Shown here in pieces: positions 16,058 to 25,747 of a DNA stretch of 64,000 nt. How positions within the stretch are numbered: position 1 is the stretch's first letter; every line of letters starts with the position of its first letter. The translations under genes were made by a program, and so were the position numbers. The stretch is taken from the sequence record PQ724393.1; one strand, given 5' to 3'. The notes below the pieces were generated by a model. The model made no database searches, was not told where the DNA came from, and saw nothing but the letters and a program-made list of their open reading frames with translations. The DNA is from a phage.

Positions 16058-16546
16058 TTATCTATAAGCGGCCCAAGTACCTGTTTTAAATGTTGAAATC
16101 ACGCGCTTAGCACGGTTAGGGGTTTGCTTGTACCAACGAGATTGAGCCAGGTTAACTGCCGCATCGTTCCAACGTTTCTGTTGGAGCATACGTAAAGAGT
16201 TAGTGAACCCTGCTACACCTGCTTCACCCATTTGGAAGACCATGTTAATTAAAGCACAACGACGAACTTCATCGAGCACATCATAAACAGGTTTCAATTT
16301 AGGATTACGCAGAATAGCTCTACGAGCATTATCAACCGACCGGTTAAAGAGTTGTTCTGCTTCAGCCATAGTAATACGACCATTACAAACTCGACCCATA
16401 AGCTTATCAAGTTCAGCGCGGGCAACATCTTTAGATGGGTTCTTGGTAACTAACTGGCCAATACCAATAGTCCAATAACCTTCAGTGTCTTTATAAAGAT
16501 TTAAATCAAGACCTTCGTCTTGACGTAACATATCAAAAATATCCAT
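16058..16546 (-). CDS. e: lysozyme (endolysin, T4 e)
   Basis: 162 aa; [13 protein letters not shown]...[13 protein letters not shown]... matches T4 lysozyme with catalytic Glu11/Asp20 context. Confidence 0.92.
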
Positions 16547-16576: not shown

Positions 16577-17026
16577 TCAAAAGAGCGAATCTAAAACCTT
16601 AAACATCGACGGGCCCATGACATATTTCCATTGTGGACGTTTAATCAAGGCAAAAGCATCGAATTCAGGAATCGTACGACCATCAGGGAACGTATGGTAA
16701 GCTGTACATTTGCAATTCTTGAACTGCTCGTGTTCCACAGGCACTGTATATAAGAACAGATGTAGATTCTTATTGCTTGAATATTTGAACTCACCTAGGT
16801 CTTTCAGGAATGCAGGATCGTATGCCGTGAATCCAATCTCTTCTTCGGTTTCACGCATTGCGGCTTGAATAGGCTCTTCGCCTGGTTCTACATGACCTTT
16901 AGGAATGTCCCATTTATGACGCATGTTCTCTGGATTACGAGAGCCTGTTACACGACCCATAACTAGTTCTTTATCAACGGTCATGAACAAAATACCGGCA
17001 GATAGTTCTTTAACTTTCTTACTCAT
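16577..17026 (-). CDS. nudE: Nudix hydrolase
   Basis: Nudix box GHVEPGEEPIQAAMRETEEEIG; start set to internal ATG (MSKKVKEL) giving 150 aa. Confidence 0.8.
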   Translation of the reverse strand: MSKKVKELSAGILFMTVDKELVMGRVTGSRNPENMRHKWDIPKGHVEPGEEPIQAAMRETEEEIGFTAYDPAFLKDLGEFKYSSNKNLHLFLYTVPVEHEQFKNCKCTAYHTFPDGRTIPEFDAFALIKRPQWKYVMGPSMFKVLDSLF

Positions 17027-17255
17027 CGTCTCGTTCCCACGATTGTTTAAAGATATCTTGCATAATAATTTGAAGTCTATTTTCTGATGATGGACTTTCA
17101 CTATCAGACACTTGAAGCATATAGTCACCAATAGGACAGAACATATCCATATCGCTTTCTAAGTCTTCTTTGATTTTCTCTTCTGACGTTCCGGTATCAT
17201 AGGAATACAGATAAGAATCACATGACTCAGATTTAATATAAATTGCAATACTCAT
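17019..17255 (-). CDS. hypothetical small acidic protein (78 aa)
   Basis: ORF with ATGA overlap to upstream gene. Confidence 0.4.
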   Translation of the reverse strand: MSIAIYIKSESCDSYLYSYDTGTSEEKIKEDLESDMDMFCPIGDYMLQVSDSESPSSENRLQIIMQDIFKQSWERDDE

Positions 17256-17845
17256 TTACGGCATTCCTTAATAAACTCATTTAAATTATGTTTGTTTTTA
17301 CCTTCGTCGTAAAGACGTTGTTGACGACGTAAACGCCATGGCATTTCAATAGCCAAGCACCAAATACTTAAAGCAGCGCCAGCTGTGAAAAGATTCATTA
17401 ATCCGGCGCCAATAATAGTTCGTTCTAGCGCATCATTCCAGTTAGCATCGATTAAAAATGAACTCAACACTAACATTGGAAGTAAAGTAATAAAATACGC
17501 TACAACATATCGTCCGAACGTAAGCCATTCAGTATCGATGAGCTTAGCCTTTCCATCTTGGAGACAAATATACTTATCGTCAGTGCGGGTGATTTTCTTT
17601 ACCGGTTGCCAACCATTTACGATATAACCCATTCTGAACTCCTCAATTAAAAGCTGTTTCATTTCGGCAGTACAACCTGACCAATCTATTGTACTGGCTG
17701 AAATTCCTTCATCACAGTCATCGATATTTCGCCAGGACTTTTTAATAATCATATGTTCACCACTTGGGATAATAATTCCAGCATTTTCCGACCGACGGAT
17801 GAAGTTTGTATCAATACCCATACAACCAGGTTCATAAAGGGCCAT
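17252..17845 (-). CDS. membrane protein (197 aa)
   Basis: several TM segments in C-terminal half. Confidence 0.5.
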   Translation of the reverse strand: MALYEPGCMGIDTNFIRRSENAGIIIPSGEHMIIKKSWRNIDDCDEGISASTIDWSGCTAEMKQLLIEEFRMGYIVNGWQPVKKITRTDDKYICLQDGKAKLIDTEWLTFGRYVVAYFITLLPMLVLSSFLIDANWNDALERTIIGAGLMNLFTAGAALSIWCLAIEMPWRLRRQQRLYDEGKNKHNLNEFIKECRK

Positions 17846-18531
17846 TACCAGCCCTCCATAGGAAATTCCAGATATACTTGAGCATTAACGCGGATTTCAT
17901 TTGTAATCTTTTTAACACGGTCGGTATTACGAGACACACGACCAAACCAGCGCCACCCGTTACTTACTGCACGAGAACCTGTATGCCATGTTTGCCAATC
18001 AAACTGGAGTAACGTGCGGTCAGGAGCATCCCACTTGGTTAATTCATTGGACTCAATTTTTTCCAGAACTTCTTTATGCCACTGGCGATAGATAAGTTCG
18101 CCTTCAGGAATCTGACTGAACTGTGCAGTTCCGGTTGCAAAATGAGTAGGACACACATCAGCATTAACAAGACCAAGAATATGTTCAGAATGGTATCGAG
18201 GATTATCATAATCAGGTTGCCCTGCGGTAATAAAGTGTTGACCCACCGGAATATCTGGACGTGGTACATCATCATGGTGGAAGCCTGGAATTGCAGGGTA
18301 CCAGCCGGGCATTAACATGTGTACACGGGAATCAAATACGCATTCAACGGCTTTCCACTCATCAGGGAGATTAGTAATAAAGCTACGAGTAATAGGACCA
18401 CCATTTTGTGCAGCAAAATTCAAATCACAGTTAAAGAACATAGGCTCGTTTTTAATATCATCATTAGAAATATGACCTGCAAAACCACCTACTGCACGAG
18501 CTTTAGAATTAAAAGTTTTTGGACCGTTCAT
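17845..18531 (-). CDS. hypothetical protein with possible 2OG-Fe(II) oxygenase motifs
   Basis: GFHHDD (HxD), later WHTG (distal His) and GRVS (RxS); by eye only. Confidence 0.45.
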   Translation of the reverse strand: MNGPKTFNSKARAVGGFAGHISNDDIKNEPMFFNCDLNFAAQNGGPITRSFITNLPDEWKAVECVFDSRVHMLMPGWYPAIPGFHHDDVPRPDIPVGQHFITAGQPDYDNPRYHSEHILGLVNADVCPTHFATGTAQFSQIPEGELIYRQWHKEVLEKIESNELTKWDAPDRTLLQFDWQTWHTGSRAVSNGWRWFGRVSRNTDRVKKITNEIRVNAQVYLEFPMEGW

Positions 18532-18545
18532 AATATTTTCCTCAC

Positions 18546-18758
18546 TTACTTTTTGTTGAAAAAGTACATTTTACCTTTAGGAGATAAGGATACACGAAGG
18601 GCGTTACCAATACCAACTGAACATTTAACCAGGTCAGCAGATTTCAATTCACCAAATGCTTGACGAAGGTCTCCATCACGAGTGTTAACCATCAGGCATT
18701 TAGCACCAGCTGCACGAACTTCGTTTAACATGTTGATTGCTTGGTTAGAAAGTTTCAT
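18546..18758 (-). CDS. hypothetical small protein (about 70 aa)
   Basis: start moved to internal ATG downstream of the promoter element that lies inside the track ORF. Confidence 0.4.
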   Translation of the reverse strand: MKLSNQAINMLNEVRAAGAKCLMVNTRDGDLRQAFGELKSADLVKCSVGIGNALRVSLSPKGKMYFFNKK

Positions 18759-18836: not shown

Positions 18837-19796
18837 TTATTTTTCGAAAGGACGAATTAAATGATGGTTATCTTGGAAACGCTTGATGTAGTCGTTTTCA
18901 CCTAAAGTCTTATACATATTCACTACAGCTTGGTAGTTTTCCCAGGCGTACTCGCGGAACCAACCTGAAGTGATTGAGGTACACACTTTCTCAAGAGCCA
19001 TATAAAAACTTAATGATGGTGAAATATTGAAGTCATTAGGAACCTGTGAACGTTCTAGTGCCAGGACACAAGTTTCTTCATATACACCAGCCAGTTTAAT
19101 AGCTTCGGGCAAAGCCTCGAACTTCTCACGAGAGGTCATGACTTCAGAACCTTCCTTCATATAAAAGGTATATGCAGGGCGTCCAGCCAATGCTACTGCT
19201 TCATGAATAGAGTCATGGTCCAGCGTATAAATGGTATCATTAAAGAACGATGATTTGTTTACGTCCAATTTAGGGTGAGAATAGCTCAACGTTTCTTTTT
19301 GACGTTGCAACATAATTTCCCGGAGTTCTTCGTTCAGGGTGATACCTTTATTACGAAGGTATTTGATGTGGGACATAGTTTTCAAGAAGAACGGATTATT
19401 CTTCAGGAAACGATGAGAGGTTTTGATAGCCAGACAGATATCAGGCGTTGCCCAATAGAAACCAGTAAGACGGTCCTTTTTAATATGATTTTCAGCATAT
19501 TTCAGGAGACGATAACTTGAAGTGAAATCTTCGTCTTGAAGCTCGCCAGTAATTTCTCGTACGTTAGTCAGAGCACGGACAATATAAGCTTCAAAATAGG
19601 TTTCTTTACCATTGTACATACATTTAAAGGCCTGGACATCAGGATTATCCACAGGAACATGAGCGCCGAACATCCGGGCTTTAAAGTGATTCCATGAGCC
19701 TTGGTCGGCAATGAAATCCCAATCAGAATTTTCGATATGCTTACTTTCAATCAGACCAGCGTGGTGCAGTGCACGAGAACCAATAACTAGCATCAT
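18837..19796 (-). CDS. hypothetical protein (319 aa)
   Basis: long ORF; N-terminus LVIGSRALHH...SDWDF loosely NTase-like but spacing atypical. Confidence 0.55.
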   Translation of the reverse strand: MMLVIGSRALHHAGLIESKHIENSDWDFIADQGSWNHFKARMFGAHVPVDNPDVQAFKCMYNGKETYFEAYIVRALTNVREITGELQDEDFTSSYRLLKYAENHIKKDRLTGFYWATPDICLAIKTSHRFLKNNPFFLKTMSHIKYLRNKGITLNEELREIMLQRQKETLSYSHPKLDVNKSSFFNDTIYTLDHDSIHEAVALAGRPAYTFYMKEGSEVMTSREKFEALPEAIKLAGVYEETCVLALERSQVPNDFNISPSLSFYMALEKVCTSITSGWFREYAWENYQAVVNMYKTLGENDYIKRFQDNHHLIRPFEK

Positions 19797-25589: not shown

Positions 25590-25665
25590 TTGGTATCCCG
25601 CCCTGGGATCGAACCAGGACCGCAAACTTAGAAGGATCGTATGCTATCCATTACACCAGCGGGAC
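25590..25665 (-). tRNA. tRNA-Arg (anticodon UCU)
   Basis: minus strand GTCCCGCTGGTGTAATGGATAGCATACGATCCTTCTAAGTTTGCGGTCCTGGTTCGATCCCAGGGCGGGATACCA; cloverleaf foldable by eye, anticodon loop CTTCTAAG. Confidence 0.8.
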
Positions 25666-25670
25666 ATAGT

Positions 25671-25747
25671 TGGTGACCCGGACCAGATTTGAACTGGTAA
25701 CCTTTCCCTTATGAGGGGACTGCTGCTAACCATTGAGCTACAGGGCC
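25671..25747 (-). tRNA. tRNA with CAU anticodon (Ile-type as in T4, or Met)
   Basis: minus strand GGCCCTGTAGCTCAATGGTTAGCAGCAGTCCCCTCATAAGGGAAAGGTTACCAGTTCAAATCTGGTCCGGGTCACCA; anticodon loop CCTCATAAG. Confidence 0.75.

Follow-up and report, generated by a model that had tools for sequence, protein, structure and literature searches.

The window analysed here, a 64,000-nucleotide stretch of phage DNA (PQ724393.1), carries on its minus strand, at 17845..18531, a 228-aa coding sequence for a predicted Fe(II)/2-oxoglutarate (2OG)-dependent oxygenase, an assignment that draws on the open reading frame (ORF), a match to PHROG 1843, codon bias, an AlphaFold2 (AF2) model and fold matches. As read on the sequence, the gene begins with an ATG at 18529-18531 (minus strand). 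A Shine-Dalgarno GAGG (18540..18543, minus strand) stands 8 nt 5′ of this codon, just past the TAA stop (18546-18548, minus strand) of a small gene upstream. At the other end, the oxygenase stop overlaps the ATG of the downstream gene in a TAATG (17843..17847, minus strand). The downstream gene (17252..17845, minus strand) is e.2-like and encodes a 197-aa membrane protein, as judged from PHROG 2203 ("membrane protein"); e.2 is the annotation given to the membrane-protein gene downstream of the oxygenase in phage Bp7. The same adjacency recurs in Stenotrophomonas phage SBP5phi2, and another gene occupies that place in Citrobacter phage Ursula.

The co-oriented block runs from lysozyme e (16058..16546) through the NUDIX gene nudE (16577..17026), a 78-aa ORF, the e.2-like gene, the oxygenase and the small ORF to a 319-aa protein (18837..19796, minus strand; PHROG 2141) with DUF7277 at residues 2-101 and DUF7275 at residues 120-305. 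Given the GAGG directly after the upstream stop and the TAATG overlap, the oxygenase gene is part of a tightly packed co-oriented block, and the overlap suggests that it is co-transcribed and translationally coupled with the e.2-like gene. The block is the counterpart of the non-essential e-to-tRNA accessory region of T4. Upstream of it lie adjacent tRNA-Arg(tct) and tRNA-Met(cat) genes (25591..25747, minus strand), a pair corresponding to the tRNA cluster region of T4.

Comparison with five relatives of equal length placed 147:99:497 substitutions on codon positions 1:2:3 of the minus-strand frame. This third-position bias indicates that purifying selection acts on the oxygenase frame and not on any antisense ORF that overlaps the region. 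The stretch under study matches Escherichia phage fDHCT2 at 100% identity and WG01 at 98%; both are T4-like coliphages in which the gene is labelled "hypothetical protein".

That label is attached to the gene in nearly all deposited genomes, and the family is large. Of 50,697 phage records searched with tblastn, 472 contain the protein, at 70-93% identity in non-T4 T-even relatives infecting Escherichia, Shigella, Klebsiella, Citrobacter, Enterobacter, Serratia, Erwinia and Aeromonas, and at ~30% identity in Mycobacterium and Gordonia phages, Bacillus phage G and others. A HMMER scan of 1.84 billion representatives yielded 615 clusters (50% identity level) at E <= 1e-3. Only 24 loci were found in prokaryotes when one genome per species was searched across 185,579 species, and the family is thus essentially phage-borne. 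The syntenic e-to-tRNA region of T4 itself, including e.5 and e.6, gave no tblastn match, and the best E value with the family profile there was 0.11. Family members show no informative domain fusions, only tandem duplications. In two of these, P0137 (418 aa) and P0193 (444 aa), the N-terminal copy keeps the HxD, the distal His and the Arg, and the C-terminal copy lacks the HxD, which may hint at a family that works as a dimer, one half of each of these fusions being a pseudo-enzyme.

Several records depart from this picture in their annotation or assembly. A few recent GenBank entries, annotated on the basis of structure, name homologues "2OG-Fe(II) oxygenase" or "phytanoyl-CoA dioxygenase", and one UniRef cluster is called "Phytanoyl-CoA dioxygenase family protein". 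The 196-aa homologue of Escherichia phage vB_EcoM_005 (P0084) is named "tail sheath monomer" in GenBank and UniRef, an evident mis-annotation. In Aeromonas phage 65 (GU459069.1, 182773-183458), tblastn recovers the homologue in three pieces, which are annotated as two or three hypothetical proteins and represented in BFVD by E5DSD9 (143 aa) and E5DSE0 (86 aa); either the copy is frameshifted or pseudogenised, or the sequence contains errors. Near-identical copies of the T4-like gene also occur in bacterial assemblies, namely on a 453-bp contig (L007) of Dyella japonica DSM 16301 and on Klebsiella "genome" contigs of 108-113 kb (P0056, P0060, P0062 and P0108). Such copies probably represent contaminating phage or lytic phage assembled along with the bacterium, and not genes of the chromosome.

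An earlier note on this DNA had read the ORF as a possible 2OG-Fe(II) oxygenase from an FHHDD cluster, a later WHTG and a GRVS. Checking the codons on the sequence located all three in the 17845-18531 ORF, as F84-H85-H86-D87-D88, W182-H183-T184-G185 and G197-R198-V199-S200 of the 228-aa protein, and their near-invariance exceeds chance. We measured conservation in an alignment of 116 diverse homologues with 31-87% identity to the query and a mean column identity of 23%. Motif residues are among its few near-invariant columns, and only H85 (codon 18277-18279, minus strand) and R194 (codon 17950-17952, minus strand) are fully invariant, each at 116/116. D87 (codon 18271-18273, minus strand) is conserved in 114/116 sequences; H86 and D88 are variable, so the operative iron-ligand motif is H85-x-D87. 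H183 (codon 17983-17985, minus strand; 115/116), the predicted distal iron-binding His, is placed on strand 182-185 and completes with H85 and D87 an HxD/E...H triad at the canonical strand positions. Other conserved polar residues are E29, D67, R69, H71, R91, Q105, H117, R214 and Y220.

The same note had assigned 2OG binding to the RxS motif, and this part can be refined. R198-V199-S200 (codons 17932..17940, minus strand; R198 at 17938-17940 and S200 at 17932-17934, both minus strand) is well conserved, with R198 in 115/116 and S/T200 in 112/116 homologues, but the canonical arginine, to judge from the alignments, is more likely R194, which the note had not listed. R194 follows H183 by 11 residues on the last core strand (192-201), where a basic residue about 10 positions after the distal His is characteristic of the superfamily, and is the probable binder of the 2OG C5 carboxylate. 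Human PHYH (H264/R275) and E. coli TauD (H255/R266) have the same +11 His-to-Arg spacing. Since R194, F196, R198 and S200 alternate along the modelled beta-strand, they point to the same side; on this shared strand face, R198 and S200 possibly provide a second contact to 2OG or to the substrate.

Sequence libraries placed the family in no named group. The query and the 116 family members had no significant match in Pfam or NCBIfam, and none of them matched PADLOC. A full-length match to PHROG 1843 (E 5e-94) bears the label "unknown function". No curated 2OG-oxygenase family gave a significant profile match. PF05721 (PhyH) did not match the query, its best value among the members being E 0.068 (1/116), and AraC_binding, a cupin family, matched three members weakly. 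Searches of PDB sequences by phmmer and hmmsearch returned nothing significant; the family profile, run against all PDB sequences, picked out only the lysine halogenase BesD (E 1.3), in an alignment that pairs H183 with the distal-His segment "TLHR" and R194 with the next Arg. In hhalign, the family aligned with E. coli YbiX, a PF13640 enzyme, at E 0.02-0.03 and a probability of ~2%, a borderline value because the YbiX profile was shallow (the homologues among the matches listed were all >=80% identical); TauD gave no match. The YbiX register pairs GFH85-H-D87 with GFH96-V-D98, R91 with R102, H183 with the His of "SSLHC" and GWR194 with "GVR". Each of the BesD and YbiX alignments is weak, yet they are consistent with each other and with the predicted structure, and both set R194, not R198, at the canonical 2OG-arginine position. 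Full-text literature searches found no paper on the oxygenase family.

AF2 run on the family alignment returned a model with a pLDDT of 95.4 and a pTM of 0.91. It contains eight core strands that carry the motif residues on the expected strands (65-73, 116-122, 129-138, 165-168, 173-178, 182-185 and 192-201, together with irregular beta-bridges at ~77-85), a helix at 147-160 and, at lower confidence, a loop at 88-115. Both the model and its fold matches show the double-stranded beta-helix (DSBH, or jelly-roll) core of the superfamily, which was the structural check proposed by the earlier note. All 50 matches listed by Foldseek against the PDB are Fe/2OG oxygenases or halogenases, among them HygX, EvdO2, H11, GriE, ColD, SadA and HalB; every top structural match is a 2OG oxygenase, and none is a germin, an AraC-type cupin or a sugar isomerase. 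A fold search of BFVD matched uncharacterised viral proteins only. The level of the structural matches (TM 0.3-0.4, identity 8-16%) is that of a shared fold, which marks the family as a divergent lineage outside any characterised subfamily. By the model, its nearest relatives in fold are PhyH-like and P4H-like enzymes. Together, motif conservation, the AF2 fold and the YbiX/BesD register support the 2OG-Fe(II) oxygenase reading, and on sequence and model we predict that the protein is very probably an active Fe(II)/2OG oxygenase.

We hold it likely that the gene encodes a soluble, single-domain Fe(II)/2OG oxygenase of a phage-borne family outside Pfam and NCBIfam, with a small anionic host metabolite as the best guess for its substrate. 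In such an enzyme, H85, D87 and H183 would hold Fe(II) at the mouth of the double-stranded beta-helix, and 2OG would chelate the iron with its C5 carboxylate anchored by R194, possibly aided by R198 and S/T200. The 2OG would then be decarboxylated with O2 to give succinate and CO2, and the resulting Fe(IV)=O species would oxidise a substrate, most likely by hydroxylation. This substrate would be bound under the 88-115 loop by E29, D67, R69, H71, R91, Q105, H117, R214 and Y220. The gene would act from an early, non-essential accessory region between e and the tRNA genes, co-transcribed with its neighbours. Our best guess is that the substrate is not phage DNA but a small, anionic metabolite that any host would supply. 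Three points lead us there: the closest structures belong to small-molecule oxygenases of the PhyH-like kind, Arg and His abound in the predicted pocket, and the family has members in phages of actinobacteria as well as of Gram-negative and Gram-positive hosts.

A serious rival to the small-metabolite substrate is a protein or RNA target. The protein would here be an active Fe(II)/2OG oxygenase all the same, working on a macromolecule either by hydroxylating a translation or ribosomal protein of the host or by AlkB-like repair or modification of RNA, tRNA or DNA. PPHD, for instance, acts on EF-Tu, and YcfD acts on L16. The small-molecule guess rests on the best-scoring subfamilies, whose score margins are small: PhyH-like structures score 8.2-9.0, P4H-like structures 8.0-8.6 and AlkB-like structures 6.7-7.5. 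We regard a macromolecular target as possible and as the less probable choice.

Gene neighbourhoods bear on a further reading, in which the family is a phage counter-defence or host-takeover enzyme tied to NAD+, ADP-ribose or nucleotide metabolism that oxidises a nucleotide-derived metabolite or immune signal. We clustered the ORFs around 111 homologues from 42 lineages (single linkage, 65% identity) and found no conserved operon partner, the top neighbour cluster, of replication genes, occurring in 6/42 lineages. Counted by lineage, a T7-like DNA polymerase was present in 6, a primase-helicase in 5, DnaB in 4, a metallophosphoesterase in 5, NAMPT in 5, an NMNAT-NUDIX protein in 4 and RtcB in 2. 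NAMPT lay within six genes of the oxygenase in those 5/42 lineages, directly adjacent in two, and at least one NAD-salvage or NUDIX gene (NAMPT, NMNAT-NUDIX or nudE) did so in 7/42. Loci beside NAD-salvage genes are L082, L106, L084, L081, L030 and L005, the last from Bacillus phage G (3163-8660), where the oxygenase gene is flanked by a NUDIX hydrolase on one side and PncA/PncB/KptA/NadD-type genes on the other. NARP2 (Nampt + Nmnat) is reported in ~1.1% of phage genomes (bioRxiv 10.1101/2024.02.11.579819). Against this baseline, NAMPT in 5/42 lineages has a binomial P of ~1e-4, which weakens to 0.008-0.03 if such genes are carried by large phages at 3-5%. In the 64-kb window, nudE lies three genes from the oxygenase, and no NAMPT, NMNAT or NARP gene is present. 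Papers on NARP, including the one just cited, mention no oxygenase.

The adjacency to NAD-salvage genes could reflect a functional link or shared placement in islands of anti-defence and auxiliary metabolic genes, and we treat it as a lead, not as a conclusion. To our knowledge, oxidation of such a metabolite or signal is a chemistry that has been described for no phage anti-defence protein, and we consider this role improbable. A different neighbour, the DUF7277/DUF7275 gene, stands beside or near the oxygenase in 21/47 T4-like loci and is absent from its vicinity in other lineages. In our reading, the N-terminus of its product, "VIGSRAL...SDWDFI", bears a putative likeness to the GS...DxD motif of minimal nucleotidyltransferases; a search of PDB sequences with this protein gave no match.

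Quite improbable, in our view, is a protein of DSBH or cupin fold that does not use 2OG, whether a 2OG-independent oxidase or isomerase, a metal- or ligand-sequestering protein or a pseudo-enzyme. Cupin-fold proteins with His/Asp metal sites do many other chemistries, a significant sequence match to any 2OG family is absent, and the AraC_binding matches, weak as they are, point the same way. The second copies of P0137 and P0193, having lost the HxD, further show that the scaffold can persist without catalysis. However, the combination of an HxD...H triad, an Arg at +11 and an RxS/T, each conserved to at least 96%, is a signature of 2OG oxygenases and not a cupin metal motif, and the top structural matches are without exception 2OG oxygenases. 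Chance motif likeness in an unrelated protein, or a spurious ORF, might be argued from the commonness of short HxD and RxS strings and the missing Pfam match, but is refuted, to the point of being negligible, by the third-codon-position bias, the 472 phage records and 615 representatives at 50% identity, the near-invariance of exactly the motif residues and the confident DSBH model with only oxygenases as structural neighbours.

Within the Fe(II)/2OG oxygenase reading that we prefer, PhyH, TET/JBP and halogenase are not labels that the protein should carry, and AlkB is probably unsuitable too. Fe/2OG halogenases such as SyrB2, BesD and WelO5 would be expected to have HxG/A, but D87 is kept in 114/116 homologues. 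As no PF05721 match exceeded the gathering threshold, the protein is PhyH-like by fold only and is not to be entered as a member of the PhyH family. A TET/JBP-type 5-methylpyrimidine dioxygenase (5mYOX) was rejected as well: the Tet_JBP Pfam match is absent, such enzymes are not among the structural matches listed, and methyltransferase, glycosyltransferase and ParB genes are not conserved neighbours across the 42 lineages. The arabinosyl-5-hydroxycytosine pathway of RB69-like phages was likewise set aside, as it uses a ThyA homologue and other genes, not the gene described here, and the paper describing it mentions no oxygenase.

The result is an improved annotation, not a new principle, and the enzyme class is ordinary. 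The gene belongs to a large, conserved and nearly phage-exclusive family in well-studied enterobacterial relatives of the T-even phages that has no function assigned in Pfam, NCBIfam or PHROGs. Its complete predicted Fe/2OG active site offers a testable handle on an accessory gene of therapeutic-type coliphages. Were the enzyme to act on a host metabolite, on a component of translation or on an immune signal, it would represent a new host-takeover chemistry.

Compared with members of the PhyH-like clade (EasH, H11 proline hydroxylase, EctD, AsqJ, AndA, HygX/EvdO2, GriE and KanJ), the phage protein has 8-14% identity, is shorter than a typical PhyH and has conserved positions of its own, namely E29, D67, R91, Q105-P106, H117, R198, R214, Y220 and a C-terminal GW. 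From enzymes of the P4H/PKHD type (PF13640), including E. coli YbiX/PiuC, PHD2 and the viral collagen P4H of PBCV-1, it differs in its N-terminal region and its 88-115 insert, and it has no PF13640 match. Phage-encoded TET/JBP-type 5mYOX enzymes are likewise Fe(II)/2OG dioxygenases of jelly-roll fold, with ParB partners (PMC13229309), and belong to a different family. A parallel in setting comes from T4-like cyanophages, whose accessory genes include 2OG-Fe(II) oxygenase and PhyH-domain proteins of putative function (Sullivan et al. 2010, PMC3037559), with proposed roles in DNA repair or in the conversion of 2OG to succinate (PMC3037559). Because these phages have long been known to carry several 2OG oxygenases (PMC3037559), the class is not new to phage biology. 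The cyanophage enzymes share with the present family the superfamily and a place among T4-like accessory genes; they form a different sequence family. Matches to cyanophage proteins in BFVD were weak (E 6e-3 to 2e-2), and the ten host genera most frequent in the tblastn results include no cyanophage host. Unlike the cyanophage oxygenases, the family described here belongs to enterobacterial, Aeromonas, actinobacterial and Bacillus phages, and thereby extends the 2OG oxygenases known from cyanophages to phages of enteric bacteria, Aeromonas, actinobacteria and Bacillus.
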